This document shows positions 5,585 to 46,275 of a DNA stretch of 64,000 bases, in pieces. Location of the stretch: the IMG/VR virus record IMGVR_UViG_3300046170_000502, positions 32,001 through 96,000 of that record. One strand, written 5' to 3'. The notes under the pieces are model-generated. The model worked only from the letters and a program-made list of their open reading frames with translations. It was not told the origin of the DNA and searched no databases. The translations under genes were made by a program, and so were the position numbers. Source of the stretch: a virus. Position 1 is the stretch's first letter. The number at the start of each line of letters is the position of its first letter.

Positions 5585-5794
5585 GGAGAGGTAGATATAC
5601 TTCTCCTGTGGGTGACCGAATAAGCCTGTCGTGAGCGGGCTAAAGTATGCAGATCCCTGTGGTAGGGTTGGTAGAGTTCAATCGAATGAGCCAAATGACA
5701 ATACCATGTCTAGTCTGTAGTTTGAAGTAGGTACACAATGAACTGATGTTCACGCCGAAAAATTGGAGGTATACAGTAGTCCTTCCCCACGCCA
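5585..5794 (+). ncRNA. candidate structured ncRNA of unknown family (about 210 nt)
   Basis: GC-richer island of successive hairpins (5585-5606; 5623-5641 with GTGA loop; CCCT/AGGG; GACA/TGTC; TGAAC/GTTCA); GTGGG 5608 can pair with CCCAC 5786; ends in GCCA; own promoter and terminator. Confidence 0.7.
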
Positions 5795-5816
5795 TTTTCT
5801 TAATCATGCATTCTAG

Positions 5817-5851
5817 CCTACTCAAGGTTTATTCCTTGGGTAGGTTTTTTT
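5817..5851 (+). terminator. intrinsic terminator
   Basis: CCTACTCAAGG-TTTATT-CCTTGGGTAGG followed by a T-run. Confidence 0.9.
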
Positions 5852-6966: not shown

Positions 6967-7043
6967 TAAGTCGTTGTATATCAACAAGTTGCGGAAAATC
7001 CGCCTAGGCTTTTTTACGTAAGTCTTTGAAGCTCAACAACTTA
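6967..7043. repeat. 77-bp double-dyad element, copy 1
   Basis: TAAGTCGTTG-TATAT-CAACAAGTTG, 27-bp spacer with CCTAGG, TAAGTCTTTG-AAGCT-CAACAACTTA. Confidence 0.9.
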
Positions 7044-7108
7044 CAACTATATTCAATTAAATGAAAAAAAAGGTTGACTTGCGGTAAAAACCTGTCATAC
7101 TTGTATAC

Positions 7109-7507
7109 ATGATTAAGACAAAGCCTAACGAAAAAAGATATAAGATTGACTTTGGCAGTCCTGTTTTTGTTTACAAAAATCTTCACAAAAAATGTTGGAG
7201 CATCAAGCAAAACGGATTGGTCAAGGCTCATACTAAATTATTAGCAATGCATAGTTGCACCTTCAAGGTTAATAAAAATGGGCGACAAAGAGTTTTAAAA
7301 GAACAGCGTAAAAATGTTCATGCAGGAATCGAGGGCTATATAGAGAATTGGCAAATGGGTGATTGGAGAGAATCTCATCCCACCGCACGACCTGTTTCAT
7401 ACAACCCATATAAGTATGAGAATTTTGTTGACAAGGACACGGAACAAATGGTAGACTATGCTATTGCCGTAAGATTAGAACCCAAACAAGTATTAGCAGT
7501 ATTATGA
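7109..7507 (+). CDS. conserved hypothetical phage protein
   Basis: VYKNLHKKCWSI...GRQRVLKEQRKNVHA pattern recurring in phage early regions; promoter 7074-7101, 7 nt to ATG. Confidence 0.8.
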   Translation: MIKTKPNEKRYKIDFGSPVFVYKNLHKKCWSIKQNGLVKAHTKLLAMHSCTFKVNKNGRQRVLKEQRKNVHAGIEGYIENWQMGDWRESHPTARPVSYNPYKYENFVDKDTEQMVDYAIAVRLEPKQVLAVL

Positions 7508-7655
7508 ATGAAACACAAATGACCAAAACAAGTATCCAAAAAGAGATCATTGACCAATTTGACTATTTAAGTCCGAGAGAGTTAATGGTGATTTTCGAGT
7601 TAATCTTCGGAATGGGAGAGGTTCAACTAGATGAAGTAGATTGGAGTAAGTAATT

Positions 7656-7889
7656 ATGACACAAGCAAAAATTAGAGAAAACATTTTAAGCATCGTTCGA
7701 GGAGAAATGGCATACGCAGATCCAATGTCCAAGGTTTGCTTGGAGCAGAACGAGCGTCACCCCGAAAAGTTTCCACTTGGAAGTACATTTCAATCAGCCG
7801 AAGAAGTTTTAGAAGACATCATTTTAAGTTTGACATCATTGCAAAATGAGCTTAGAATAGAGTCTTCATTTCAATCAGCACAACTATAA
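7656..7889 (+). CDS. hypothetical protein
   Basis: ORF within the operon. Confidence 0.65.
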   Translation: MTQAKIRENILSIVRGEMAYADPMSKVCLEQNERHPEKFPLGSTFQSAEEVLEDIILSLTSLQNELRIESSFQSAQL

Positions 7890-7905
7890 ACACAAGGAAA
7901 AAATC

Positions 7906-8313
7906 ATGGGATTAGATCAATACGCATACGCACGACCACCACGCAAACGCAATTCAGACAACGATATTCAAGTTGCCGAGTGGAGAAAACACAATCGCTT
8001 ACAAGGTTGGATGGAACACCTTTGGCAAAGCAAAGGTTGTCCAAACGCAAATGAAGATGGTGATTTTAATTGTGCAGTATTACCACTCACATCTGAAGAT
8101 ATTGATTCTCTTGAAGATGCGATTCTTAACTTTGAGTTACCCCAAACGGACGGATTCTTTTTTGGTTCTGATTCTTATTTTTGGACTGACGAAAATGATG
8201 AACCTCATGCCGATAACGATTATTGGTACAAAGAATCTGACTTGACATTCATCAAAGAAGCAAGAAAAATGATTGAGAAAAAGCACAGAATTTTTTACTC
8301 TTCTTGGTATTAA
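7906..8313 (+). CDS. conserved hypothetical phage protein (MGLDQY/WRKHN type)
   Basis: MGLDQYAY...WRKHNRLQGWM...FYSSWY pattern; AAGGA upstream. Confidence 0.8.
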   Translation: MGLDQYAYARPPRKRNSDNDIQVAEWRKHNRLQGWMEHLWQSKGCPNANEDGDFNCAVLPLTSEDIDSLEDAILNFELPQTDGFFFGSDSYFWTDENDEPHADNDYWYKESDLTFIKEARKMIEKKHRIFYSSWY

Positions 8314-8351
8314 GGCTTGACTTTCGCTGAAAATCTGACAAACTATACATT

Positions 8352-8549
8352 ATGAGCATGACACTAGAAACACCACAACAAATTAACGCATTCCGATTAA
8401 GGACTCTCGCAAGAGGAATAAAATTGGAAATGAATGGATTAAAGATGTCGAGAGGTAGAAGTTGCTACTCGATTGTAAAATCTGAATTCGGATTCAAGGG
8501 CAACAAGCAATCTGTTCTTGACCAATTACTCAACCACATGGAGGGATAA
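8352..8549 (+). CDS. hypothetical early protein
   Basis: TTGACT-N16-CAAACT at 8317-8344, 7 nt to ATG. Confidence 0.75.
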   Translation: MSMTLETPQQINAFRLRTLARGIKLEMNGLKMSRGRSCYSIVKSEFGFKGNKQSVLDQLLNHMEG

Positions 8550-8551
8550 GG

Positions 8552-8761
8552 ATGAACGAATATATTGATGCAGTATGCGAGGGACAACCTCTTGACAAAC
8601 CAAGTTTCAACCAAGATTCAGAGCAATGGGAATTGTACTTTGAAGAGTCTGCCACGCCTTGGCATCCTTATGACTCAAGGGATTTAATCGCAGTAAGTTT
8701 TGACTCTGCCCAAGAAGCAGAACAATCTTACAACCACTATTCACAACCTAACCAAGGATAA
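8552..8761 (+). CDS. acidic hypothetical protein
   Basis: ORF 2 nt after the previous stop. Confidence 0.65.
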   Translation: MNEYIDAVCEGQPLDKPSFNQDSEQWELYFEESATPWHPYDSRDLIAVSFDSAQEAEQSYNHYSQPNQG

Positions 8762-8936
8762 GATATGCGAAATTCTCGAATTGAAAATCTTAGGAATAAA
8801 GTTCGCAATATGGGCTACGCTTTGGCTCAAGCTGAATTGCGAGGCTTGAGGGGAGAAGAATTGTTTGCTAAGAAATTGGCTCACAACCTACTTCTTGGCG
8901 AACTTTACTCTCTCGAAAAAAGGGTATAGTTAAAGG

Positions 8937-8966
8937 GGCGGGCTTGGGAAAACCCAAGCTCGCCTT
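8937..8966 (+). terminator. GC-rich hairpin, probable terminator abutting repeat copy 2
   Basis: GGCGGGCTTGGG-AAAA-CCCAAGCTCGCC. Confidence 0.65.
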
Positions 8967-9041
8967 AGCCTTTGTTATTCAACGACTTACGAAAAATCGC
9001 CCTGGCCGGTTTGGCCTAACTCATTGATACTAAGTAACTTA
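8965..9041. repeat. 77-bp double-dyad element, copy 2
   Basis: TTAGCCTTTG-N5-CAACGACTTA, N27, TAACTCATTG-N5-AAGTAACTTA. Confidence 0.85.
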
Positions 9042-9241
9042 CAACAATCTTTATTTTTATGAAAAAAAAGGGTTGACATTACATCATTTTCTGTCATACT
9101 TGTATACATAAGCGAGATAACTGAACTTAAAAAAAATTAGTCGAAACAAAAAAAACTTAATCGAAGAAAAAAAAGCTTGACAAAAACCAAAAACTTTAGT
9201 ATAATTAACCCATCAAAGACGATAAACCAACACTAAAAATT

Positions 9242-9979
9242 ATGAATAAAAAAATTGATCTCTCCGTATGTGGCACAAAAAGAATTGACTTTAGCGAAGT
9301 AAAGTCCGTACAGACTCCCGAAAAGACTGAGTCTTGGCAACCAATCGGTCATGCGTTCCTTGTTGATCGTGTGCAAAACCAAATCCAAGACAATGGTTGG
9401 GAAATTGTTGACACTTACCATTCTCTTCACCGATTCGGTCAGCGTTACTTCGGTCTCTTTCACATCAAAAACACAGGTTCCGATTCTGATGATCGTGGCA
9501 CAATTCTTGGTCTTCGCAACTCGCACGACAAATGCTTTCCAGCAGGTTTGTGCATGGGCAATGCTCCATTTGTTTGCTCCAACCTTATCTTCACTAACGA
9601 AGTGACTCTTGCAAGACGGCACACAAAAAACATTTTGACTGACTTGTCTCAAGTTATCGCTCGCACTCTCGGCAAGATGACTGAGACATGGGCAAGCGAT
9701 GAGAAACGCATCGAAGCATACAAGGAGTATGAACTTGGCAACGAGCAAGCTCATGACCTTGTTATCCGTGCATACCAAAATGGTGCGATCAGCAAGGGTA
9801 AAATCGCTGATGTAGTTGAGCAATGGCACAAACCCGAACATGATGACTTTTCTGCTCGGAATATGCACTCATTGTATAACGGCTTTACTCATGTCCTTAA
9901 AGGTGGAGTTCATGCCTTACCAAATCGTTCTCTCGCATTGCATGGTGTTCTTGACTCCGAAGTCGCACTTGTAAAGTAA
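9242..9979 (+). CDS. DUF932-like phage protein
   Basis: WQPIGH...LGLRNSHDK..AGLCMG..FVCSNL...RRHT...NMHSLYNGFT pattern; tandem promoters at 9073 and 9177. Confidence 0.7.
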   Translation: MNKKIDLSVCGTKRIDFSEVKSVQTPEKTESWQPIGHAFLVDRVQNQIQDNGWEIVDTYHSLHRFGQRYFGLFHIKNTGSDSDDRGTILGLRNSHDKCFPAGLCMGNAPFVCSNLIFTNEVTLARRHTKNILTDLSQVIARTLGKMTETWASDEKRIEAYKEYELGNEQAHDLVIRAYQNGAISKGKIADVVEQWHKPEHDDFSARNMHSLYNGFTHVLKGGVHALPNRSLALHGVLDSEVALVK

Positions 9980-10027
9980 TCATTCTTAATCAAAAACCAA
10001 AACACAAACCTAACAAAAATTAAAATT

Positions 10028-10258
10028 ATGAAAAATCAAGCAAAACTCAAAAATGTAGTTGATAGTCTCAAAGGTCGTTTCGTTTCTCTTCTTGTCAAGC
10101 AAGGTGAGCAACGCAAGGTCTTCTCTGCTAAAGTCAATAGCGTGACTTCTCGTCATGTTATGTTTTCGGACATGAATGGAGCAAATCGTCGAGTTAATCG
10201 TCGCCATGTTCTTCGTGCGACTTGTGCTAACAAATCTTTTAAGAGGTCAGTTGGTTAA
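10028..10258 (+). CDS. small basic beta-rich hypothetical protein
   Basis: ORF following DUF932, ends before a terminator. Confidence 0.7.
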   Translation: MKNQAKLKNVVDSLKGRFVSLLVKQGEQRKVFSAKVNSVTSRHVMFSDMNGANRRVNRRHVLRATCANKSFKRSVG

Positions 10259-10284
10259 TCGCAAGCTCGGAAACGAGTAGGCTC

Positions 10285-10310
10285 AAGCCTCCCTTCGGGG
10301 AGGCTTTTTT
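10285..10310 (+). terminator. intrinsic terminator
   Basis: AAGCCTCCC-TTCG-GGGAGGCTT plus T-run. Confidence 0.92.
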
Positions 10311-10331
10311 GCATCTTGAATTATTGTTTCG

Positions 10332-10408
10332 TAAGTCGTTGCAGGCCAGGCAGTTACGAAAAACGGGCCTAGGCTTTTTGGCGTAAGTTGTTGGATATCA
10401 ATGATATC
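10332..10408. repeat. 77-bp double-dyad element, copy 3
   Basis: TAAGTCGTTG-N5-CAGGCAGTTA, N27 with CCTAGG, TAAGTTGTTG-N5-CAATGATATC. Confidence 0.85.
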
Positions 10409-10481
10409 CGCAACAAAACTTTTTTTACTTTTTTTGCATTTAGGGGTTGACTTTGCACCTTATTCTGTCATAATGGAATAC

Positions 10482-11225
10482 ATGATTAAGACAACACTTC
10501 TCACATCAGGTAATCAAAAAATTCTCAAAGGCGAGAAATTAGGTTACATAACGAAAGGCATTCACTTTGCCCCAGCAAGTCTTTCAGGCTTCGAAGTTTG
10601 CCGTTGGCGTTCTAAAGGTTGCACGGCATCTTGCCTCAATACGGCAGGTCGTGGACAAATGAATTCAATTCAAGAATCTCGTGTCGCCAAGACAAAGTTG
10701 TTCTTCAATCATCAGTTAGACTTTCTTGCGAAGCTATCGAAAGAAATTTCTAATTCAATTAAGAGTGCAACGAAGAAAGGAATGAAATCGGTTTTCCGAC
10801 TTAATCTCACAAGTGATGTAATGTGGGAATCTGTTTTCTTTAACGAAGATCAGCCAAAGTCAATCTTTGATAAATTTTCGGATGTTCAGTTTTATGATTA
10901 TACGAAATCATTTAAAAGAATGTGTTCTTTTCTCGACAAGCCTTTTATTAAGGGCGAGGCAAAGTTTCCCTCTAATTACCACTTGACTTTTAGTCGCTCG
11001 GAAACAAACGATACAAAATGCGAGATGGTTCTTTCAATGGGTGGCAATGTTGCCGTTGTATTTCGCAATCAATTACCTAAAACATGGAAAGGTTTTGAGG
11101 TTGTCAATGGTGATGATAATGACCTTCGCTTTCTTGATAAGAAAGGTGTTGTTGTTGGGCTTATCGAAAAAGGCATGGCAAAGAAGGATTCAACGGGATT
11201 TGTTCAAGAAGGGGTAAATTCATGA
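10482..11225 (+). CDS. Gp88-like protein (start revised to 10482)
   Basis: CxxxxxGCxxxCLNTAGRG, FRLNLTSD, VQFYDYTK, NYHLTFS, GD.NDLRF motifs; promoter 10447-10474, 7 nt to ATG. Confidence 0.7.
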   Translation: MIKTTLLTSGNQKILKGEKLGYITKGIHFAPASLSGFEVCRWRSKGCTASCLNTAGRGQMNSIQESRVAKTKLFFNHQLDFLAKLSKEISNSIKSATKKGMKSVFRLNLTSDVMWESVFFNEDQPKSIFDKFSDVQFYDYTKSFKRMCSFLDKPFIKGEAKFPSNYHLTFSRSETNDTKCEMVLSMGGNVAVVFRNQLPKTWKGFEVVNGDDNDLRFLDKKGVVVGLIEKGMAKKDSTGFVQEGVNS

Positions 11226-11386
11226 GTGAAACATATTACGATTCAGCCGAAGATTTAATGATTAGTCAATCAAGAGCGTTTGATGAACTATCAAAGCATG
11301 GTTGCCAAGAGATACAGCAATTTCTTGAGGACATGGGAGATAAGGAGGAGTATGAAGCACAAAAAGTATTGGAATGGTTAGGTTAC

Positions 11387-11463
11387 TAAACGCTTGGTTA
11401 TGAACTAGTTAGGGCAAAAAGCCCTGGGCGATTTCGCGCAAGTCTTTGGCGATCAAGGCTTTA
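11387..11463. repeat. 77-bp double-dyad element, copy 4 (degenerate)
   Basis: TAAACGCTTG-N5-GAACTAGTTA, N27, CAAGTCTTTG-N5-CAAGGCTTTA. Confidence 0.75.
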
Positions 11464-11530
11464 CAACTATTTTCATTTTTTCTGCATTTAAGGGTTGACT
11501 TAGTTTGAGATTCTGACATACTAATACTTA

Positions 11531-11630
11531 CCAACACGATCAAACTAATCTGCAAATTAGTGGTGATTAAGAGAGGTGCGGATTGCAGTCCTAATTATAC
11601 TCTTGTGGGTTCGACTCCCTCCGTGTTTGG
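11531..11630 (+). ncRNA. tRNA-like RNA / degenerate tRNA-Cys remnant
   Basis: T-arm GGG-TTCGACT-CCC, GGA-TTGCAG-TCC arm, ends AACACG/CGTGTT pair; promoter TTGACT-N16-CATACT at 11495-11522 puts the start at the 5' end; no canonical D-arm or CCA. Confidence 0.55.
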
Positions 11631-11694
11631 TATCATTTTATTATTCACTAAAAAAACGCTTGACTTCACAAAAAATTCTGTCATACTATTAATT

Positions 11695-11820
11695 ATGAAA
11701 GCGAAAAAAATTAAGATAAGACAATCCATTCTCTTTACAAAAGCTCGCCCTTTCAAGATGAAAAACAAAATTCTTGATCGGAAACTAAAACACAAAACCA
11801 AATTGACTTATGTATCTTAA
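11695..11820 (+). CDS. small very basic peptide (start revised to 11695)
   Basis: TTGACT-N16-CATACT at 11660-11687, 7 nt to ATG. Confidence 0.6.
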   Translation: MKAKKIKIRQSILFTKARPFKMKNKILDRKLKHKTKLTYVS

Positions 11821-12052
11821 CGACCCAAACCACTTGCAAGTCCAAGATGTTGACTCGCTCGAAGCAAACGAATTAGTTATGGCATTCATCCATGACAATA
11901 TGATCGAGCCGATGACCGACAAGAATATGCTTGACAATGATCAACTTTCAATGTTAAATGTAGTTGGTAGTGCGTTAAAGTGCATTGCTCAAAAAGCTCA
12001 CGCTTACGAAACTCTCACAGAATCGCAAGACTCATCTCATTACAGAAACTAA
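11810..12052 (+). CDS. hypothetical protein
   Basis: ORF in the operon. Confidence 0.7.
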   Translation: MYLNDPNHLQVQDVDSLEANELVMAFIHDNMIEPMTDKNMLDNDQLSMLNVVGSALKCIAQKAHAYETLTESQDSSHYRN

Positions 12053-12253
12053 ATGAACAAAGAAAAACATTTAATTACGAAAAGCAAAGACGGATGCGTT
12101 GTCCTTATTAAAGCAGAGAAGAAGACTGAACAGACCGATGTCTTTATCTCGCAAGCAACATTCGAGAAGAACATCTCAAGTAAAACATTCGTAAAACACG
12201 CAACACTCACACACAACAACAATCCAATATATATCTACCATGAAGACCTTTGA
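12053..12253 (+). CDS. hypothetical protein
   Basis: Abuts the upstream stop. Confidence 0.65.
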   Translation: MNKEKHLITKSKDGCVVLIKAEKKTEQTDVFISQATFEKNISSKTFVKHATLTHNNNPIYIYHEDL

Positions 12254-12572
12254 TGACTTAAATTTTAACTCTCACCCAAGTGCAAAAGATTTGGGAGTCC
12301 AAGCAAGTATAACTTTCGATAATGGTTACGCTATTAGCGTTGTATCCAATGTGGATGGAGGTCAATGCTTCTATGGCAATCACCCCAACACTTACGAAGT
12401 CGCAGTATTCAATCAGCGTGGAGATTTTGTTCCATTGCAACCTTTTGACGATGTTCTTGGTTGGCAGGATAGAATGCAAGTTTCCAAGCTAATGAGTCAA
12501 TTTCAACAAGACGGAGTTAAACACGAAAAGCTTTTGCATTCAATCAAACAAGATAAACAAAACAATGACTAG
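12240..12572 (+). CDS. conserved hypothetical phage protein
   Basis: FDNGYAISVV...YG...YEVAVF pattern common in phage early regions. Confidence 0.7.
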   Translation: MKTFDDLNFNSHPSAKDLGVQASITFDNGYAISVVSNVDGGQCFYGNHPNTYEVAVFNQRGDFVPLQPFDDVLGWQDRMQVSKLMSQFQQDGVKHEKLLHSIKQDKQNND

Positions 12573-12829
12573 TTATCAAATACTTAAAAACGGAGAGCCT
12601 GCCGGAATTGTTGGCACGCTCGATTATATTGTCAACGCCATTCGTAATCTCGAATCAGATCTTGATCGAGTAACTGAACATTCACCTTATACAATTGAAT
12701 TGGTCAAACGAACGGCAAAAATGTAAATATCAAATACAATTCTGTGGGCAGCAAATACTAAATACTCAAATACCAAATATTTAAATAACAAATACAAATA
12801 CATAAATAAGGATTTGAGCTAAGAAATCC

Positions 12830-12906
12830 GAATGTGTTGAGTACCAACGACTTGCGAAAAAAAACCTAGGGCGGTTTTCCCTAGGTCATTGATAGTCAGC
12901 GACTTA
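12830..12906. repeat. 77-bp double-dyad element, copy 5, at the convergence of the two transcription arms
   Basis: GAATGTGTTG-N5-CAACGACTTG, N27 with CCTAGGG, TAGGTCATTG-N5-CAGCGACTTA. Confidence 0.85.
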
Positions 12907-12908
12907 TG

Positions 12909-13100
12909 TTAAAAGTCGTATTGATCGTGGTAGCCCCAGTCTACATCTTCATTTTCAGAGAATTCTTCTAGAGCCTTGCGGTCTGACTCTTCCAGTTCTT
13001 CCCTGGCAAGCTGGTCAAGCAGTGCTTGACGCTCATCGAGATCGACATCGGTAATGCCGTGGGCGTGAGAGAGGCGGGTGAGTGAGTCATTGTTTTCCAT
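12909..13100 (-). CDS. small acidic early protein
   Basis: TTGACA-N17-TAGATT at 13135-13107, 6 nt to ATG. Confidence 0.75.
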   Translation of the reverse strand: MENNDSLTRLSHAHGITDVDLDERQALLDQLAREELEESDRKALEEFSENEDVDWGYHDQYDF

Positions 13101-13155
13101 AATTCTAATCTAGCAAAATCGCAGATCTTTGTCAAACTTTTTTTTCATTTTGCTG

Positions 13156-13232
13156 TAAGTTGTTTACAACCAACGAGTTACGAAAAAACGACTTGGGCGG
13201 TTTTCCCTAAGTCATTGACTTGCAACAACTTA
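13156..13232. repeat. 77-bp double-dyad element, copy 6
   Basis: TAAGTTGTTT-N5-CAACGAGTTA, N27, TAAGTCATTG-N5-CAACAACTTA. Confidence 0.9.
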
Positions 13233-13350
13233 GGAAAAACTAAACTTTTCTCTTGCCTCACAAAGAGATTGTGCAATTAAAAAGCACAATCAGTTAAGCC
13301 CCTGAAGATTCCAATTAACGATGCGATTATCATAATTGTGACCAAATCCA

Positions 13351-13524
13351 CTAGGACATTGACCTTTCTAACTCTTGGATTTTGTTATCAATGTCGATTT
13401 GCACGGCTTGAATTTGGCTCGCTTCTTCTTGCTTGCCAAGTCTCAAGGCATTGACTCTTTGAATTGTCAACGCTTGAAGCGTGCTGATTAATGTATCAAT
13501 TTTTTCTGTTATTGCTTTGTTCAT
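13351..13524 (-). CDS. small coiled-coil protein (start revised to 13524)
   Basis: TCGACA-N17-TATAAT, then 6 nt to ATG (MNKAITEK). Confidence 0.65.
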   Translation of the reverse strand: MNKAITEKIDTLISTLQALTIQRVNALRLGKQEEASQIQAVQIDIDNKIQELERSMS

Positions 13525-13561
13525 GCTATTATTATACCATATTGAGGGCGACTTGTCGAGA

Positions 13562-13849
13562 TCAATCTTCAAAGATTGCTCGCATGGATGGGCTGACTGA
13601 CTCCATATCGTGGAGGTTCTCGTCATTGTCGAAGTCGTCATCCTCTTCGGCTTTATCTTCGGATGAAGCCAATTCGGAAACCTCGTCCTCAACATCTCTT
13701 TGAGTTGCTTCGAGCAAACCATGCTCAACGACCAATTCCTCAGCCATAATTTCGGCTTTCATGTCTTGAATGAAGTTAGACACACTTTTAGAAACAGGTG
13801 CATCTTTTGCGTTTTCGATTGCTTGGCGAATGAGATCAATGTTATTCAT
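13562..13849 (-). CDS. acidic hypothetical protein
   Basis: TTGACA-N17-CATAAT at 13886-13858; D/E-rich. Confidence 0.75.
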   Translation of the reverse strand: MNNIDLIRQAIENAKDAPVSKSVSNFIQDMKAEIMAEELVVEHGLLEATQRDVEDEVSELASSEDKAEEDDDFDNDENLHDMESVSPSMRAIFED

Positions 13850-13888
13850 ATTTTAGTATTATGGATTAATTATGTGAGTTTGTCAAAC

Positions 13889-14092
13889 TTATTTTGTAAA
13901 TTCTTTGAATATTTTTCTAAGCTCTTGAACCTTTTCAAGAAGTCCTTTGGTGGTCATTTCTTCGGTCAAGGTTCTGTCGGAATCCTTTTTTTCTGTTTGC
14001 ATATAATGAAGAAAGTCAATCGCTCCCTCCATTTGTGCAAGCTTAGTTCCGAAGTCGATTTCTTTTATTATTGTTTCTTTTGTCTTAATCAT
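13889..14092 (-). CDS. small helical protein, paralog family A copy 1 (start 14092)
   Basis: LAQMEGAIDFL...TLTEE pattern; promoter 14129-14101. Confidence 0.7.
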   Translation of the reverse strand: MIKTKETIIKEIDFGTKLAQMEGAIDFLHYMQTEKKDSDRTLTEEMTTKGLLEKVQELRKIFKEFTK

Positions 14093-14221
14093 ATACCTAC
14101 AAGGTAACACATAAAAAGGAGTTTGTCAAATTTTTTCTCACTTACCTTTCAACTATGTTTTTGCACAATTCGACTGCTATTTTCTTGCAAAGTTGGCACG
14201 GAATCTGTATCGATTTTGTTG

Positions 14222-14298
14222 TAAGTCGTTGCCGCTCAACGAGTTACGGAAAACTCCGGAGGGCGGTTTGCCCTAAGTCGTTGGTTACTAACACTTTA
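14222..14298. repeat. 77-bp double-dyad element, copy 7
   Basis: TAAGTCGTTG-N5-CAACGAGTTA, N27, TAAGTCGTTG-N5-TAACACTTTA. Confidence 0.9.
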
Positions 14299-14300
14299 CG

Positions 14301-14495
14301 CTAGTCAACCAAGATTAACGGGTCAGGCAGTGGAGTGCTAGCAATGTACGCCTCTAACTCGCTAACCTCTGCTTGTGCGATTCTGTCGAGATCTGCTTGA
14401 GCCGCTATTATGCACATTCTAGCTGATGAAGAACCATTTTCTGCGGCTTCGAGATTTTCGTCAATTATTTTTTGTAGTCTTTGTTTTTCTGTCAT
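14301..14495 (-). CDS. hypothetical early protein
   Basis: TTGACA-N17-TAGATT at 14530-14502, 6 nt to ATG. Confidence 0.75.
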   Translation of the reverse strand: MTEKQRLQKIIDENLEAAENGSSSARMCIIAAQADLDRIAQAEVSELEAYIASTPLPDPLILVD

Positions 14496-14543
14496 AAGTA
14501 TAATCTAATCTATTTTTTTGTTTCTGTCAAGCGTGAATGTGAA

Positions 14544-15089
14544 TTATTTTAAGAAATGATTGAATGCACTTTCAAGTTTACCTTTGTTGAGATTTTCTTT
14601 TCTGTCGCGAGGTACGAAATTTGACCAATGATTTCCTCCACCACTTTGTCGCTCTTGTATGTGATCAATGTTCCAAGCGTTGTCTACATTTTTATTTGTC
14701 CAATTAGACCAAGACTTGCCGTTTTCAAGTTGGACATCTAGGAATATTCTAAACTGATCCAATGAGCATCCTAAAGTTTTTTTATTTCCTCCGAGCATAC
14801 CAACTTTATCGGAGAATAATTTTCTTTCTTGTGATTCTGTCAACATTTTCACTTTTGGATCGTGGGCGATTTTGTTTCTTATTCTTTTGTATTTTTCTTT
14901 GATGTTTGCAATTTCTTTCTTTTTTACTTCGATCATCTTTTGCAATTTTTCGATTCCCTCAAGCTCTGATTGGATTTGTGCTTGCTCTGAGATTTTAAGC
15001 ATATCTCCGAGATCGAGATCTGTTCTGTTACTCTTTACAGAGTTTCTTCCGTGATGTTTATTCCAAGCGTCAGATATTTTAATTTTCAT
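14544..15089 (-). CDS. HNH endonuclease with N-terminal coiled coil
   Basis: LGCS...SWSNW...WNIDHIQERQSGGGNHWSNFVPRDRKENLNK beta-beta-alpha-metal motif. Confidence 0.75.
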   Translation of the reverse strand: MKIKISDAWNKHHGRNSVKSNRTDLDLGDMLKISEQAQIQSELEGIEKLQKMIEVKKKEIANIKEKYKRIRNKIAHDPKVKMLTESQERKLFSDKVGMLGGNKKTLGCSLDQFRIFLDVQLENGKSWSNWTNKNVDNAWNIDHIQERQSGGGNHWSNFVPRDRKENLNKGKLESAFNHFLK

Positions 15090-15372
15090 ATTTTTTATTT
15101 TTAGCAATTAACTTTATAGTATTTTATATTATAGTAATTTTATTTTGTGTCAAGCTTTTCTTTACTTACATCTGAAAAAAGATCGATTTTCTTTTCTGTC
15201 ATAGATTTATACATAAAGAAGAAAGCAGGAATAAAAGTTAAAAGAAGCAAGATGTCGTAATTCATAATTTATTTTTGTTATATTAATTTAATGTTATATA
15301 TACAATGTATCAGAAAATGAAGTAAAGTCAAGCGTTTTTTAAAAAAAAGATTAATTATTTTTACTTTTGTTG

Positions 15373-15449
15373 TAAGTCGCTGGCCATCAAGGAGTTGCGA
15401 AAAATCGCCTAGGAATTTTTTCCCTAAATCGTTGGCATTCAGCGACTTA
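15373..15449. repeat. 77-bp double-dyad element, copy 8
   Basis: TAAGTCGCTG-N5-CAAGGAGTTG, N27 with CCTAGG, TAAATCGTTG-N5-CAGCGACTTA. Confidence 0.9.
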
Positions 15450-15468
15450 GGAAAAACTGGAGTTTTGT

Positions 15469-15684
15469 TTACTTACTCGAGAGAATAGGAGACTTGTACT
15501 TTACGCTTAAACGATTGGCTATTTCAATAGCTTGTGCGTAAGTTCTTGCTCCGTCAATTAGCTCGCCATTAAAGACGACATTAAACCAATTTGAGAAATT
15601 CGGGTTTCTGAATACATTTATCATTTTATTATTAAAGCAAATTTTTGTTATTGTGTCAAACTTATTTGAGATTATTTTTCCCAA
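15469..15684 (-). CDS. hypothetical protein
   Basis: ORF on the local coding strand. Confidence 0.6.
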   Translation of the reverse strand: MGKIISNKFDTITKICFNNKMINVFRNPNFSNWFNVVFNGELIDGARTYAQAIEIANRLSVKYKSPILSSK

Positions 15685-15944
15685 ATTTGTTGAATGTAGT
15701 ATTGAGCATTGTCGCCATCTTTGCGTTGAATGCTTGTTTGGAATTGCAACTTTGGTTGAAGCGTCCGAATCATGCGAGCAACTTTTCGCCTTACTTCGTG
15801 CTTGTCTTCAGCTTGTATAGTAATTGTGTGATGTGTCTTGTCGATGTCAATGTACGACTTAGTGTTACTATTCCATAAGGAAATTGCTTCACCATCGAGG
15901 GAAGAGACATGAACGCTTGCAATGAATGTTTTATTCTTAATCAT
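15672..15944 (-). CDS. hypothetical early protein
   Basis: TTGACT-N17-TAGATT at 15979-15951, 6 nt to ATG. Confidence 0.75.
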   Translation of the reverse strand: MIKNKTFIASVHVSSLDGEAISLWNSNTKSYIDIDKTHHTITIQAEDKHEVRRKVARMIRTLQPKLQFQTSIQRKDGDNAQYYIQQIWEK

Positions 15945-16004
15945 ATATATAATCTAATCTAGTTTTGGTTGGAAGTCAAGTTTTATTTTACTTATTTTTA
16001 CTTA

Positions 16005-16202
16005 TTATTGAAAGACAACATTAAAACGAAACTGATTTAAACCTTCGTCTTTCATGATCTTATTAAGATGAGATTGACTTGATGCAGTCCGAACCCTTGG
16101 GCGATCATTGCCGTTTGAGTCGATGCCTTGATCGAAAATCTTTACTGACCAATGGGTTGACCATTCTTTAATGCGAACTTGTATTTTATTATTCTTAATC
16201 AT
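16005..16202 (-). CDS. hypothetical early protein
   Basis: TTGACT-N17-TAGATT at 16237-16209, 6 nt to ATG. Confidence 0.75.
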   Translation of the reverse strand: MIKNNKIQVRIKEWSTHWSVKIFDQGIDSNGNDRPRVRTASSQSHLNKIMKDEGLNQFRFNVVFQ

Positions 16203-16240
16203 ATGTATAATCTAATGGAATTATTTGCAAAAGTCAAACT

Positions 16241-16468
16241 TTATTTTTCATTATTTAGATCACGCATTGCTTGCAATGCTTTTCTTGCTATTTGAACAGC
16301 GTGTAATGCGTCCATGATTGTTTCAGCTTGCGTGAATGTACCTTGCCAATTGTCAGAATTTGATTCACGAACCAAGTGATTCAAGTTGCCTTCGGCTTTA
16401 GCTAAGCCCATTCCAAGGTCGATTTTTAAGTTTAATTCTTTTTTTATTTCTTCTTTTGTCTTAATCAT
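16241..16468 (-). CDS. small helical protein, paralog family A copy 2
   Basis: LAKAEGNLNHL...TFTQAE..DAL pattern; promoter 16503-16475, 6 nt to ATG. Confidence 0.75.
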   Translation of the reverse strand: MIKTKEEIKKELNLKIDLGMGLAKAEGNLNHLVRESNSDNWQGTFTQAETIMDALHAVQIARKALQAMRDLNNEK

Positions 16469-16544
16469 ATATACAATGTATCAGACAAAACGGCAAAAGT
16501 CAAGTATTATTTTGATTTATTTTAACTTTTTTTTCATTTTGTTG

Positions 16545-16621
16545 TAAGCTGTTGGTATTCAACGAGTTACGCGAAAACGGCTAGGGCGATTTGCCCTAAG
16601 TCGTTGATCTTGTGCTACTTA
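16545..16621. repeat. 77-bp double-dyad element, copy 9
   Basis: TAAGCTGTTG-N5-CAACGAGTTA, N27, TAAGTCGTTG-N5-GTGCTACTTA. Confidence 0.88.
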
Positions 16622-16927
16622 GAACACAAGAGGATCGGGTAATGAATTAGGCGATGCGAACCAATCGGATGAGTCAATTACTTGCCCGTTTAGTATAGGC
16701 TCGAATTTGAATTGGCAAACATCTGCATTCGCTATGCCGTTGACGCGTTCGCGTGTGGTGGGTGTGTTCCATCCTGCAAGCGACCATCTGACCAAGCCGT
16801 CAGCGTCACGCTTGACAATCGCGTTGCCATGTAACCAAACGGTGTTGCCGTCTGTGGTGGTGTTGCCAACTGTCTTGGCTTCGCCGCGTTCAAATGCTTG
16901 TTTAATTTGTTGTGTTACTTTTCGCAT
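16619..16927 (-). CDS. conserved hypothetical phage protein
   Basis: MRKVT..I..AF...GNT...LHGNAI...AGWNTPTTRERVNG pattern; promoter 16982-16955. Confidence 0.8.
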   Translation of the reverse strand: MRKVTQQIKQAFERGEAKTVGNTTTDGNTVWLHGNAIVKRDADGLVRWSLAGWNTPTTRERVNGIANADVCQFKFEPILNGQVIDSSDWFASPNSLPDPLVF

Positions 16928-16985
16928 GATTCTTTTATTGCTGTTATGATTCCTATTATGAATGATATTATTATAATGTCAAGCA

Positions 16986-17207
16986 TTATTTCAAGCCGTC
17001 TCTTAATTCGCTTAACTCTTTTGTTACCTTGCTGAATTCTTTATGAGCTTGTTGCAATGCGTTTAATGCGTCGGCAACGGCTTCACCTTGCGTAAGGGTT
17101 GCCATGTCAGATTCAGCAAGAAACTTTAGGTTGCCTTTAGCTTTGGACATTGCAAGCGAGCATTCGAGAGTCGGATATCTTTTTATTTTTTTATTTGTTT
17201 CTGTCAT
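16986..17207 (-). CDS. small helical protein, paralog family A copy 3
   Basis: MSKAKGNLKFL...TLTQGE..DAL pattern; promoter 17243-17215. Confidence 0.75.
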   Translation of the reverse strand: MTETNKKIKRYPTLECSLAMSKAKGNLKFLAESDMATLTQGEAVADALNALQQAHKEFSKVTKELSELRDGLK

Positions 17208-17507
17208 AGTATAGAGAGTAAAGAGTTTTTATTGATGCGTCAAGCTTTAAGCGAATAAAGGATGAATTCTAATGTTGCGAGGATGCCAAGCCATTGTTTT
17301 CTGTGATCTATACAGACGACAAAGCACTTGTTTACCTAGGCGATCATCTGTAAACTCTTTGATCACTTGGTAAGTATTATTATCTCTTGCGAGTACGACA
17401 TCATTTTTTTTATACATATTTTATATTGGTTATTTAATTAATCTTATATATACAATCTAACACATTCTGACCAAAAGTCAAGCCCATAGCAAAAAAACTT
17501 TGTGTCG

Positions 17508-17532
17508 TAAACTATTGATTATTATATACTTA
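17508..17532. repeat. single degenerate dyad (half of the 77-bp element)
   Basis: TAAACTATTG-ATTAT-TATATACTTA at the outer edge of the early region. Confidence 0.45.
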
Positions 17533-17585
17533 TGAAAACATAGAAAAAAAAGTTAAAAAAAGTTTTAATTATTAGTTATTCTGTA

Positions 17586-17611
17586 CCCCCTACCCCCTTA
17601 TGACCCTACCC
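17586..17611 (-). other. G-quadruplex-forming motif
   Basis: Minus strand GGG-TA-GGG-TCATAA-GGGGG-TA-GGGGG. Confidence 0.55.
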
Positions 17612-17773
17612 ATTAAATGAATTCATTTTTCGATCGCATTGTGCAATAGCCGCCGGGGGTGCCTTTTTTCAATATGAAATGCAACCTAATAAATTATAAT
17701 ATATTGCTCAAGCCAAAAAAAATCCAGCCACTATATAAAAACAACTTAAATAAGTGTATAATATATTAGTAAA

Positions 17774-18506
17774 ATGGCTCGAAAACGTAAAAAAACCGAG
17801 ATAACAGATGAAGATGAGATCAAAAAGATCGCATCTTCTCTGCACAAAAGAAATGTCAAGCTGAAAAAACTAAGCCTTAACTGACAAACAAATGGCTTTA
17901 TTAAAGATAATATTTGATAAAGAAACCAGTATTGTATTCATTAGTGGCCCTGCGGGCACAAGTAAAACTTATATAGCAATATATGGAGCATTACAATTAT
18001 ATAATATGAATAATGATCGCGGCATCACATATGTACGCACAATCGCAGAAAGTGGCGAAAAAAGCCTTGGCGCACTTCCTGGAGAAATGGCTGAGAAGAT
18101 CAATCCATATATGATGCCTATGAATGAAAAGCTTGATGAGCTTTTGGTTCCTGGCCAAGCCAGTATTTTAAAAGAAAAGGATATTGTAAAAGGTATGCCT
18201 GTAAATTACCTTCGCGGAGCCAGTTGGATGGACGAAATCGTAATCGCGGACGAATCTCAGAATTTCACATTCAAAGAGCTTACTACTTTAATGACCCGAC
18301 TTGGTCGCGGCAGTAAATTAATCATTTGTGGCGATCCAATGCAAAGCGACATCAATGGAAAAAGTGGATTTGCAGATATGTATTCTATTTTTGATGATCA
18401 AGAAAGCAAACAACGAGGTGTACATACATTTCATTTTGGAGCAGAAGATATAATGAGAAGTGAAATACTAAAATTTGTAATAACAAAAATACAAAATAAA
18501 AAATAA
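17774..18506 (+). CDS. phoH: PhoH-family ATPase; 5' part (17774-17884) is out of frame by +1 with the main ORF (17892-18506)
   Basis: GPAGTSKT, RGASW, IADESQN, TRLG..SKLIICGDPMQSD, RSEI motifs; LTDKQ lies in the main frame upstream of ATG 17892. Confidence 0.88.
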
Positions 18507-18521
18507 AAAAAAATATAAAAA

Positions 18522-18794
18522 ATGAGTAACAGTTTAAGCGAAACAGCGACAGAAGTATCGGAATTAAATTCGCAATTAGAGCTAATAGAATCGAGAGTAC
18601 CTAGAGTAATTATTAAAAATGGCGTTGGAGCCCCATCCCAACATAGCGATGGAACTGCTTTAAAGAAAGGAGATATATGGATATGGAGCGGCTTTTATAC
18701 TGACACATATTTATATATGTATATTGGCGGTTCTACTTCAAATCTTGCGCCGAATGGGTGGATACGAATTGGATATGCAGATGCCACTACCTAA
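18522..18794 (+). CDS. hypothetical protein, possibly virion/fibre-like
   Basis: GAPS...KGDIWI pattern seen in fibre proteins. Confidence 0.55.
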   Translation: MSNSLSETATEVSELNSQLELIESRVPRVIIKNGVGAPSQHSDGTALKKGDIWIWSGFYTDTYLYMYIGGSTSNLAPNGWIRIGYADATT

Positions 18795-18806
18795 AAATGG
18801 TTTATT

Positions 18807-19121
18807 GTGCAATTAATCATTGAATCTTTTTTGACTGAGCCACCTAGCGAAATCTCTTGTTTTCGCGATATTACATTATATGCAAAAACTTATATTTTTG
18901 ATGATATTTTACTTTTATGTCCGACTGGAACTCGCGGCGCATATTGGAATTGGATAAAACAACATGGTGTGCACGATTTTATTTCTCAATTAATAATAGA
19001 ACATGAAAAAGAGCCTGGATGTACGATTGGCGTATCTCCAGGCTCTAATATAGTTACAGATCGTATAACCTGCAACAATTTAAATCAAATTATTAATTCG
19101 CTGATTGAGTTTCGGGCTTAA
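18807..19121 (+). CDS. hypothetical protein
   Basis: 104-aa ORF. Confidence 0.6.
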   Translation: MQLIIESFLTEPPSEISCFRDITLYAKTYIFDDILLLCPTGTRGAYWNWIKQHGVHDFISQLIIEHEKEPGCTIGVSPGSNIVTDRITCNNLNQIINSLIEFRA

Positions 19122-19410
19122 CTTGATCAACAGCCTCCTGAGCAAGCTCTTCAGCTTTCTTGTTCGCGGCTTCTATAATTTCACTAACTTGTTCATCTTT
19201 AAGTTTTTCAACTTCATTTTTAGCTTGTTCTAGGGCTTTATTTTGAGATAACTGAATTATAGCATTTAGAGATACTTGAGATAATGCTTCTCCGAGTGTA
19301 GCTCTTGATAGAAATTCATTTGCTATGATCATCGCAGCATTTTGGCGTTCAGGTGAAACTTCAGGGTCTTTCGATTCTGTATTTTGTGATTCTGTATTTT
19401 GATCTGTCAT
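19093..19410 (-). CDS. hypothetical acidic helical protein
   Basis: 105-aa ORF. Confidence 0.7.
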   Translation of the reverse strand: MTDQNTESQNTESKDPEVSPERQNAAMIIANEFLSRATLGEALSQVSLNAIIQLSQNKALEQAKNEVEKLKDEQVSEIIEAANKKAEELAQEAVDQVKPETQSAN

Positions 19411-19459
19411 ATTGTATATTATGTATATTTTTTTAGATTTAAAGTTTTTTAATAAAAAT

Positions 19460-19651
19460 TTAGTTTTTCTTTTTTATAGAGTTGAAAATTAAAAGATCAT
19501 AATACAATTGTTTTTGCAGTGTATTATTTTCTTGATTCAATTGTTTTATTTGTTGGTTTTGTTTTTTGATTGTTTCAAACTGTTCCCATATAAGCCAAGT
19601 TCCGTAAAAAAACAACAGTAAAATGCTTATTTTTGTTAATGGTTGATTCAT
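19460..19651 (-). CDS. small membrane-anchored coiled-coil protein
   Basis: N-terminal hydrophobic segment, then heptad pattern. Confidence 0.55.
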   Translation of the reverse strand: MNQPLTKISILLLFFYGTWLIWEQFETIKKQNQQIKQLNQENNTLQKQLYYDLLIFNSIKKKN

Positions 19652-19792
19652 GTATATACAATAATATTAAAATATTTTATATATTCAAAATATGATATAG
19701 TTTTGTTTCAAAAGATACAATAAGTAAAAATAAAATAAATTATGCAGAAATTCTGCAATCATCTTTTAATAACTTTAGTGTATTCTATAGAA

Positions 19793-20362
19793 ATGGCAAA
19801 TATTAGTATATCAGACCTCGATCCTCTTCCGGGCGGTTATTTATCAACAGACCTCGTAGTGGTACAAAGGGATACCCAGGCATACAAACTCCCTATATCT
19901 GACCTTTCTAGCGCTGTAAATGCGGCAAGTAGATACGTTGATCAAGCTTCGATTAGCATATCCGCACATAATCTTAGCGAATTTAAAAGCGGAAAGAGGA
20001 TCTCGTTTAGAAAAAATGGACTACTTAACCAAGGTTCCTCGTTTGTAATTCAAATGAATTTTGACAATGGCGGAATGGCACTAGTTAAAAATGTAAATAC
20101 AAGCGAAATAAATGGAGTTGGAGGTTTGATTCCTTCCAATAGGCCTTATCAAATTTTATTTAAAACTTTAAGCGGAGACGTATATGCGGATATCATTATT
20201 GATAGCGCAAGCGATTCTGTAAGCTTCGAAAATATATATGTAAAGTCAGGGGTAACCACAAGTTATCAAGCTTCGTCTATCGCAGACTCATTAAATACAT
20301 CTTCATTAAGATCTAGCGATACTCAATTAAGCGCATCAATTATAGCGTCAATTGTATCCTAA
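19793..20362 (+). CDS. putative virion structural protein (start revised to 19793)
   Basis: MANISISDLDPLP N-terminus typical of fibre/structural proteins; GTGTA motif 10 nt upstream. Confidence 0.6.
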   Translation: MANISISDLDPLPGGYLSTDLVVVQRDTQAYKLPISDLSSAVNAASRYVDQASISISAHNLSEFKSGKRISFRKNGLLNQGSSFVIQMNFDNGGMALVKNVNTSEINGVGGLIPSNRPYQILFKTLSGDVYADIIIDSASDSVSFENIYVKSGVTTSYQASSIADSLNTSSLRSSDTQLSASIIASIVS

Positions 20363-31999: not shown

Positions 32000-32512
32000 A
32001 TGAAAGAACCTCTAAAAGAAAAATCATCTGCAGACACAAAATTCAACAATAAAAAAGTAAAATCTGAGTTATTTCACATCTGGAAAAAAGCCAGGGTCAT
32101 GTATGATATGATTAAAGATGACCAGGAATTGGAAACTTGGCAAAAAAACAATATCCGCGAGGCTCACGATTTGTTAAACGAAACAGCTACCTACACGGAG
32201 TATCAGAAAATTTTTCCAACACAAAAAGAAGATGACCCCGATGAAAACAAAAATAACTTTTTATCAAATGAAGATAAAAGGTATCCCGTCCCTGTGGATC
32301 AAGAAAACGGGGATCAGTTTATAACTAGATGTATATTGGACGCTAATATGAAAAACAGATATCCTGTTCAATCTGACAGATTTCAAGCTTGCATGACTAT
32401 TTTTAACGAAAAAAAACAAATTACTCATTCAAATCCTGGAGAAAAGTTTGAAGACCCTATGAAAAAAAAGGAGGATGATGATATTAATCCAGTTAAGCCT
32501 CTTCTTCCTTAA
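32000..32512 (+). CDS. hypothetical late protein
   Basis: GTGTA 9 nt upstream of ATG. Confidence 0.65.
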   Translation: MKEPLKEKSSADTKFNNKKVKSELFHIWKKARVMYDMIKDDQELETWQKNNIREAHDLLNETATYTEYQKIFPTQKEDDPDENKNNFLSNEDKRYPVPVDQENGDQFITRCILDANMKNRYPVQSDRFQACMTIFNEKKQITHSNPGEKFEDPMKKKEDDDINPVKPLLP

Positions 32513-37544: not shown

Positions 37545-38188
37545 ATTTCTATTTCCCATAGCATTTTCTTGAAAACTTCATAATTAACCTTTATATCGTA
37601 TAATGCATCATGCAGTTTAGTTGCGTCAAAAGGAACATCAAAGTCCTTGCAACACTGCTTGAGATTGCAAGATAGACCCCGTTCAATCAAATGATTTAAT
37701 CTATATTGCCAGGCCAGGAAATTATCTTCCTTGTTTATTTTAATTCTTTTCTTTAGTGCTTTGGCCAGGCAAAGTGTGTCGACTAATTTCTCTGAATAAC
37801 TAAAGTCCGACTCAGCTTTAGGGTTAATTAGTTTTCTATGCAGGTTATGCATGTAAACATCAAATCCTAATAAATTGTGCCCAACCTTAATGTAAGTATC
37901 ATCATACAAATATTTCTCAAAATGATCTAGTGCTCCTTTTGGGTCTACTGCGTTTTTTTTGTATTTGGCCTGAGTAAATCCTGTAATTTTTGCAGCTTCT
38001 GGAGACACCTTAAGGTCGTCCCATTTTAACCAATAATCTTTTTCTTCGACAATTTTATCCCCTTCTATGACGAGGAATGCTAATTGCCATGGTTTATTTT
38101 CTCCAGAAATTAAATTAAGATTGCAGGTCTCATAATCAAAAAGTAAATATTTTTGTTTGTTTTTAAATCTAAGTAATGTTTCTTTCAT
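37541..38188 (-). CDS. dnaQ: DEDDh 3'-5' exonuclease (DnaQ/epsilon-like)
   Basis: FDYET, GHNLLGFD, HDALYD motifs. Confidence 0.88.
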   Translation of the reverse strand: MKETLLRFKNKQKYLLFDYETCNLNLISGENKPWQLAFLVIEGDKIVEEKDYWLKWDDLKVSPEAAKITGFTQAKYKKNAVDPKGALDHFEKYLYDDTYIKVGHNLLGFDVYMHNLHRKLINPKAESDFSYSEKLVDTLCLAKALKKRIKINKEDNFLAWQYRLNHLIERGLSCNLKQCCKDFDVPFDATKLHDALYDIKVNYEVFKKMLWEIEI

Positions 38189-46239: not shown

Positions 46240-46275
46240 GATAAATAGTAAATAAAAGTAAGGATATTTACACAC

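Follow-up and report, generated by a model that had tools for sequence, protein, structure and literature searches.

Double-palindrome elements in the early region of a large uncultured phage resemble promoter-early stem-loop modules and contain putative IHF/HU-type sites

Background

The promoter-early stem-loop (PeSL) cassettes of T4-type phages undergo modular insertions, deletions, and replacements (Arbiol et al. 2010, PMC2839356; Comeau et al. 2014, PMC4122927). A comparable organization was found in a large uncultured phage of IMG/VR, of which a stretch of 64,000 nt (IMGVR_UViG_3300046170_000502, record positions 32,001-96,000), further referred to as the window, was analyzed. Its early region carries nine copies of a 77-bp element, each consisting of two 25-bp palindromes (dyads) around a 27-nt spacer. 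As is the case for PeSLs, these elements are repeated intergenic modules within an ORFan-rich early region, a GC-rich stem-loop (GGGC...GCCC-type) lies upstream of a strong sigma70-like promoter, and relatives gain, lose, or replace ORFan cassettes exactly at the modules. The original prediction that no named phage element displays such an architecture therefore has to be revised, as PeSL cassettes are a named analogue. Two differences are apparent. PeSLs as described lack conserved flanking palindromes, whereas the stem-loop of the present elements is held at a fixed length between two 25-bp IHF-type dyads, which are the best-conserved part of the module. Furthermore, PeSLs occur in T4-type myoviruses, whereas the present phage is not T4-like, as its terminase is approximately 24% identical to those of Clostridium and Bacillus phages and its polymerase is of the Pol III alpha type. 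The chance that the elements are modules with a PeSL-like boundary and upstream-activator function, based on symmetric putative IHF/HU-type sites, is considered slightly better than even.

A second group of related systems involves IHF. The bacterial interspersed mosaic elements of type 1 (BIME-1, also RIP or RIB) of enterobacteria consist of two inverted repetitive extragenic palindromic (REP) sequences around an IHF site. Like the elements studied here, they are extragenic repeats of composite structure, in which palindromes are joined to an IHF-type site, and occur between transcription units. In contrast with BIME-1, the present arrangement is inverted, with two IHF-type sites flanking a GC palindrome, and the elements are phage-borne, located upstream of promoters in helical phase, and present in tens rather than hundreds of copies. 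Upstream architectural activation by IHF is known from the lambda pL promoter. Similarly, the early promoter Pe of phage Mu is under positive IHF control, according to references 35-36 cited in PMC3820752. Known IHF sites, such as lambda attP H' and Mu Pe, have the CAA-N4-TTR core and the TTG-N5-CAA centre in common with the dyads, and occupy similar positions, namely upstream of phage early promoters, next to tRNA genes or att-like sites, at the ends of insertion sequences (IS), and near dnaA. Those sites are asymmetric, whereas the dyads are fully mirrored and have additional conserved bases. Also, no IhfA/IhfB equivalogs were detected in five dyad-bearing bacterial genomes.

Results and discussion

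Anatomy and conservation of the element array

The nine 77-bp copies aligned without gaps as 10-5-10 / 27 / 10-5-10. When each copy was scored with a weight matrix built from the other eight copies, 51-80 bits per copy were obtained, compared with a maximum of 4 for shuffled sequences. The highest non-element score in the window was about 3 bits, indicating exactly nine copies, all at 6967-16621, in agreement with the positions and the identical 25-27-25 geometry predicted before. Start-to-start spacings were 1998, 1367, 1055, 1443, 326, 1066, 1151, and 1172 bp. The alignment of all copies also bore out the earlier description of the 27-nt spacer as an A-tract, a GC-rich CTAG-like core, and a T-tract, as well as that of the N5 centres, which differ among all 18 dyads. 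These anatomical features were read directly from the alignment. An additional half copy had been proposed at 17508; one arm and one consensus match are present indeed, although the site is weak and was missed by the hidden Markov model (HMM) of the dyad at E<1. An apparent relation between the strand orientation of the elements and the genome axis was discarded, because the model was built from one orientation, making the signal circular. The elements, their neighbouring promoters, and one mobile cassette are as follows (window positions).

6967-7043, element 1, upstream of the gene at 7109-7507 after a stop-free gap; perfect match to the IHF consensus WATCAANNNNTTR at 6979-6991
7074-7101, + strand, sigma70-like promoter, 30 nt past element 1
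8965-9041, element 2; a separate canonical terminator (8935-8966) abuts on its upstream side
9073-9100, + strand, sigma70-like promoter, 31 nt past element 2
10332-10408, element 3; a canonical terminator (10285-10306) lies shortly upstream
10447-10474, + strand, sigma70-like promoter, 38 nt past element 3, followed by a GP88-family gene
11387-11463, element 4; a homology breakpoint at 11387-11390 recurs in relatives
11495-11522, + strand, sigma70-like promoter, 31 nt past element 4
12830-12906, element 5, where the + and - gene blocks converge; no adjoining promoter
12907-13155, - strand, mobile cassette with an ORFan (12909-13100) and its own promoter (13135-13107)
13156-13232, element 6; - strand promoter 13135-13107 at 20 nt
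14222-14298, element 7, abutting the stop of the open reading frame (ORF) 14301-14495 (- strand); the next - strand promoter has its -35 at 14129-14124
15373-15449, element 8; - strand promoter 15331-15304 at 41 nt
16545-16621, element 9, abutting the stop of ORF 16619-16927 (- strand); - strand promoter 16503-16475 at 41 nt
17508-17532, weak single-arm remnant, upstream of the - strand promoter 17481-17454, undetected by the dyad HMM

Relatives were gathered from IMG/VR by a GP88 protein search and an exact-pattern search, some of the contigs reaching about 220 kb. A search with nhmmer retrieved 243 unique full-length elements from 102 loci, 44 of which contained at least three elements. Both dyads were strongly conserved over contigs of 34-49% GC, and the spacer was variable in sequence and length. 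The first five elements were syntenic among relatives of 76-99% protein identity. Element length was essentially constant per contig, being 77, 83, 67, or 75 bp. Hence, the claim that lengths never change holds for this phage and inside each related contig, but not across lineages. In two loci (L102 and L072), two 83-bp elements were only 13 bp apart.

Promoter phasing and cassette exchange

Genes run rightward from about 7109 to 12726 and leftward from 17417 to 12909. In the direction of transcription, a stop codon precedes every element, often by 0-20 nt. Beyond eight of the nine elements, a sigma70-like promoter of the type TTGAC-N16/17-CATACT was found at 20-41 nt, or at 92 nt in the case of element 7; the successive distances in the window were 30, 31, 38, 31, 20, 92, 41, and 41 nt. 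Many further promoters of the array region have no element. Among the unique element-plus-flank combinations of this lineage, the distance from the proximal dyad to the -35 (TTGAC) clustered at 20, 30-31, and 40-41 nt. Indeed, this distance displayed a periodicity peak at 10-10.5 bp, with R = 0.74 over all values and R of about 0.5 (p of about 0.02) when each distance was counted once. This phasing is a direct observation. Among the roles proposed originally, transcription enhancement seems favoured because of the helical phasing of the elements to the next promoter; nothing in the evidence points to staged DNA entry or to shielding from host defence.

The elements also coincide with places of gene exchange. 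Comparison of the window with 18 relatives revealed that 53 of 194 homology-block ends fell within 20 bp of an element, versus 17.8 expected, which is an approximately threefold enrichment with a p-value that is indicative only, as the loci are related. Most of the remaining block ends fell at promoters. The cassette at 12907-13155 (249 bp, comprising a 63-codon ORFan and a promoter) was absent from four relatives (L011, L037, L003, and L002). In L011, which is 97% identical to the window, the gap is bounded exactly by dyads, and a triple dyad (25-27-25-27-25; L011:12430-12558) replaces element 5, the cassette, and element 6. These breakpoints were established directly, and this fusion of elements 5 and 6 via a common dyad indicates that elements can share a dyad.

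Three side observations concern these boundaries. Upstream of the GP88 homologue, the more distant relatives L029 and L031 carry a different GC-rich palindrome (GGGGGCCCCC-centred) without dyads; as it occupies the equivalent position, the boundary module appears replaceable. Further, the promoter unit continues into the gene, with a conserved ATG-ATT-AAG-AC (Met-Ile-Lys-Thr) about 7 nt past the -10, for instance at 7092-7121, 9091-9120, 10465-10494, and 14106-14080 (- strand). Hence, many of the early cassettes may have no or almost no leader and begin with common codons. Finally, the longest GP88-family ORF (10401-11225, + strand) begins inside element 3, but its true start is probably located downstream of the promoter at 10447-10474, because relatives align only from about residue 28.

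Resemblance of the dyads to IHF sites

Over 972 half-sites, the information content was 1.25, 1.88, and 1.34 bits for CAA, 1.93, 1.94, and 1.50 bits for TTR, and 0.66-1.29 bits for the N4 in between. The best-conserved bases of each arm thus constitute CAA-N4-TTR, the core of the IHF consensus; this conservation pattern is a plain result of the alignment. The H' site of lambda is ttgctTATCAAtttgTTG, i.e., TTG-N5-CAA-N4-TTG (quoted in PMC2709558). The dyad centre, GTTG-N5-CAAC, has a geometry equal to TTG-N5-CAA of H', with the consensus mirrored on the other side. Because of this mirrored H' geometry, a single symmetric putative site that would accommodate one dimer is a better reading of each 25-bp dyad than a pair of alternative IHF sites. 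The perfect WATCAANNNNTTR matches quoted originally at 6979, 9017, and 17508 are real, but they are three out of 12 in the window, where a rough estimate from base composition gives about 9, so that they are not significant alone; such counts were discarded as evidence for IHF. An HU/IHF gene was not found in three complete phage relatives, making a host protein more likely as the candidate binder than a phage protein. The original interpretation of an array of paired bending sites for the host HU/IHF family or a phage dimer hence agrees with the conservation profile, the TTG-N5-CAA geometry, and the lack of covariation described below; the lack of an HU/IHF gene in the three phage relatives counts against the phage dimer.

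A full-text literature search with the arm sequences returned no description of the motif among the texts matched, the only useful match being the terminator table of Stenotrophomonas phage DLP6 (PMC5349666). A scan of the DLP6 genome revealed 26 half-sites on one strand, each preceded by AA(A) and thus corresponding to the full IHF consensus. Most of them form direct-repeat pairs with a spacing of 25-26 bp, beyond which come a GC hairpin and a promoter. From the -10 of early promoters, the proximal half-site is 33-34, 43-44, or 54 nt away, distances that represent steps of one helical turn. Because the half-sites of DLP6 occur without their mirror image, the half-site unit would be asymmetric and helically phased, which fits heterodimeric IHF. 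DLP6 thus resembles the window in its identical 11-13 nt half-site, its downstream GC hairpin and promoter, and its helical phasing. It differs by its direct repeats instead of palindromes, by having both half-sites on the same side of the hairpin, and by being a T4-like phage that infects a gamma-proteobacterium. The possibility that both phages encode the same binder was dropped, as the window and DLP6 have only PhoH and ribonucleotide reductase in common. With its identical half-site, cultured DLP6 and its Stenotrophomonas host offer a bench system for a direct test of the mechanism.

Proposed function of the modules

According to the PeSL-like reading, a module would comprise a GC-rich, hairpin-prone spacer flanked by two 25-bp palindromes, each of which would bind one dimer of a host HU/IHF-family protein. 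The module would be placed between the end of an early unit and the next sigma70-like promoter, with a constant helical orientation towards the -35. A first function may be architectural activation as at Mu Pe, whereby the bound, sharply bent DNA would raise or condition the activity of the early promoter. Secondly, the GC-rich spacer might help to stop or attenuate read-through. Thirdly, because the module is repeated, it would supply homology patches for the PeSL-like insertion, loss, and swap of cassettes composed of an ORFan and a promoter. Protein identity, bending, and transcription effects are what we infer from the sequences. If correct, this would provide a sequence signature for early-gene boundaries and host-takeover cassettes in a large uncultured clade of phages of approximately 100-220 kb, whose genomes otherwise encode almost exclusively ORFans. 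It would also extend PeSL-mediated modular shuffling to phages that are not T4-like.

Several observations weigh against this reading. In some relatives (the G002 lineage), the genes are retained whereas the elements have decayed to a one-armed form, implying that the module is dispensable. The distance between dyad centres depends on the lineage (42, 50, 52, or 58 bp), which refutes the 52-bp spacing of about five helical turns as a universal feature and means that no single bend-phasing rule explains the doublet. Neither does the reading account for the length lock within lineages. In the window, element 5 has no promoter, the 38-nt promoter distance of element 3 does not fit the helical phase, and the 92-nt distance of element 7 fits it only roughly. 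Moreover, the loci behind the distance and breakpoint statistics are related and not independent. As to the binding sites, a perfect WATCAANNNNTTR occurs in 193 of the 972 half-sites (20%) and in two of the 36 in the window, the WA positions of the consensus carry about 0.1 bit, and positions outside the IHF consensus are conserved, namely the third N (A in 87%) and the G two bases past TTR (90%). The latter positions hint at a more specific or different protein.

Such a protein leads to an alternative that is considered rather unlikely, namely that the elements are operators of a dedicated sequence-specific regulator, either phage-encoded or a host protein other than HU/IHF, and that the resemblance to IHF sites is incidental. 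The role of this regulator might be to switch off early transcription, to control its timing, or to form a loop in the early region. The conserved bases beyond the IHF consensus and the small number of full-consensus sites suit this explanation, and palindrome arms of 10-11 bp are typical of dimeric regulators, but the occurrence of the DLP6 half-site alone, as direct repeats, is unusual for a symmetric dimer. Similarly, an element length that is fixed per lineage and differs between lineages suggests co-evolution with a lineage-specific partner, but no DNA-binding domain was detected in the early ORFs scanned, and PhoH and ribonucleotide reductase are the only proteins shared with DLP6. Also, the dyad is dispersed over several bacterial phyla in housekeeping intergenic regions, which speaks against a dedicated operator.

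Dyads in bacterial chromosomes

The exact dyad pattern was found in 92 stretches of species-representative genomes, versus about 4 expected. Most matches belonged to Verrucomicrobiota, Planctomycetota, Lentisphaeria, Fibrobacter, Bacteroidota, Gemmatimonadota, Latescibacterota, and Treponema; a few were clearly phage contigs that had been binned into metagenome-assembled genomes. When up to three mismatches were allowed, 18 dyads were retrieved in Akkermansia, 11 in Fibrobacter, 12 in a Verrucomicrobiae genome, and 25 in Treponema, compared with 0-1 per genome for reversed-pattern controls. A hand count located the perfect IHF consensus inside 15 of the 18 Akkermansia dyads. The original prediction had named an ordinary REP-like repeat of host chromosomes as its counterexample. 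The single dyad is dispersed indeed (11-25 copies in four genomes), but the 77-bp doublet was seen on phage-like contigs only, which comes close to this counterexample without amounting to it.

Chromosomal dyads were located in divergent promoter regions (dnaA and argS among them), beside tRNA genes or their ends, and, in a Verrucomicrobiae genome, within a repeated IS, where the DDE transposase follows about 110 nt downstream. Such settings would be typical for the sites of a host architectural protein. A coherent regulon in Akkermansia was considered and rejected, as the flanking genes (argS, dnaA, and genes for an htrA-like protease and a glycosyltransferase) have no common theme. In the Akkermansia genome (G005; L273-L284), a second palindrome of the GCATT-N3-AATGC type was present 10-15 nt from the dyad in at least five of 12 loci read, which suggests a composite chromosomal element. 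Five dyad-bearing genomes contain 1-5 genes of the HU/IHF family (PF00216) each, none of them above the cut-offs of TIGR00987 or TIGR00988 (IhfA or IhfB). As no gene reaches these cut-offs, a putative homodimer on a symmetric site fits. To our knowledge, no IHF-like specificity has been described in phyla including those of Akkermansia and Fibrobacter.

A more far-reaching version of the PeSL-like reading is put forward tentatively and is more likely wrong than right. It holds that the dyad is the high-affinity site of an uncharacterized, deeply conserved, site-specific HU/IHF-family homodimer of the PVC group (Planctomycetes, Verrucomicrobia, and Chlamydiae), the FCB group (Fibrobacteres, Chlorobi, and Bacteroidetes), and spirochaetes, i.e., a counterpart of IHF outside proteobacteria, used at origins, IS ends, and integration sites. 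The uncultured phage clade would pair such sites around a GC clamp and so build length-locked insulators with two U-turns, which would activate and topologically isolate each early cassette and double as points of phage-wide cassette exchange. Should the PeSL-like reading itself hold, the occurrence of the dyad upstream of dnaA, in an IS, at tRNA genes, and at phage promoters would point to a conserved site of a DNA-bending protein outside Proteobacteria.

It is quite unlikely that the elements are selfish repeats or relics, similar to miniature inverted-repeat transposable elements (MITEs) or REP doublets (REPINs), that spread by transposition or recombination without regulatory benefit. They are multi-copy palindromic doublets, but no transposase or RAYT-like gene was found among the window ORFs scanned. 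In a Treponema genome, ten copies of one identical exact dyad occur, being part of a larger MITE-like repeat unit wherever flanks were read, along with about a dozen copies of a variant dyad; the dyad inside the IS of the Verrucomicrobiae genome points in the same direction. Mobility of this kind is also suggested by the decayed elements of some relatives and the movement of cassettes at elements, but it does not explain the synteny of the first five elements, their helical phasing to promoters, and the focusing of conservation on contact-like positions in lineages that differ widely, also in GC content.

Evidence for a DNA site and against an RNA structure

Complementarity between arms of the same copy was not above the level between copies for any of four possible pairings, in the nine copies and in the 243 unique relatives (z = 0.7, 0.06, 0.25, and -2.4 in the latter). 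A G-G clash at arm positions 4/7 is even the commonest state of dyad 1, and the covariation term of RNAalifold was positive, which represents a penalty. RNAfold often chose one long-range hairpin over local hairpins, and neither covaried. This lack of base-pair covariation is a direct result and indicates that the arms are conserved for sequence and not for pairing. The dyads are thus probably of the double-stranded protein-site type, and RNA hairpins are very unlikely.

The corresponding alternative is that the elements function at the RNA level, their hairpins terminating or stabilizing early transcripts or directing their processing. RNase III-type sites between the early genes of T7 offer a comparison, and the location of the elements directly after stop codons would be appropriate. 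Some copies fold better than shuffled sequences (z down to -5.5), and the GC-rich spacers are hairpin-prone (mean z of -1.4; -1.55 for the 77-bp class and -3.3 for the 83-bp class, in which the spacer consists of a canonical GC hairpin and a subsequent T-run). A terminator scan detected a GC hairpin with a T-tract in only one of the nine elements, namely element 5, with a terminator-like hairpin in its core on the - strand. As elements 2 and 3 each have a separate canonical terminator upstream, the element is not simply a terminator. Compensatory changes were lacking for any arm pairing in the 243 sequences and mismatches were conserved. Furthermore, the motif copies of DLP6, being direct repeats, cannot pair, and an Rfam scan yielded only a manA RNA and a tRNA, with no family at the elements. 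Altogether, an action in RNA is given little credence.

Recombinase crossover sites in an integron-like cassette system are barely credible, despite the array of small cassettes parted by structured palindromes and one cassette indel bounded exactly by dyads, as the central bases differ in every copy, the dyad length is odd, the cassettes have their own promoters and both orientations (unlike integron attC arrays), folded-strand covariation is lacking, no recombinase or integrase was found among the window ORFs scanned, and breakpoints occur at promoters too, as homologous exchange predicts.

Gene content and neighbouring features

None of the 20 small ORFs scanned within and next to the array (7656-20362) had a Pfam match. 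A few larger genes of the region matched the phage families L5 gp82, DUF932, GP88, and Kyano_Gp96, with PhoH just outside the array. A megablast search of the array against GenBank phages returned no match, so that a close cultured relative was not found there, and blastn with one element against the same phages returned chance matches only. Besides its Pol III alpha-type polymerase, the phage encodes a ribonucleotide reductase, a ClpB-like ATPase, and a planctomycete-type PSCyt2/PSD1 protein. The latter (DUF1549/DUF1553; 43993-46275, - strand) belongs to a family typical of Planctomycetes and Verrucomicrobia, and may be a clue to the host that is consistent with the phyla whose chromosomes hold the dyad. 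The ClpB-like protein, a double AAA+ ATPase (32493-34970, - strand), adjoins the Pol III alpha-type replicative polymerase (34986-37559, - strand). Just left of the array, a full-length manA RNA motif (Rfam RF01745, 83.5 bits; 5585-5795, + strand) is followed by a strong terminator (5815-5846).

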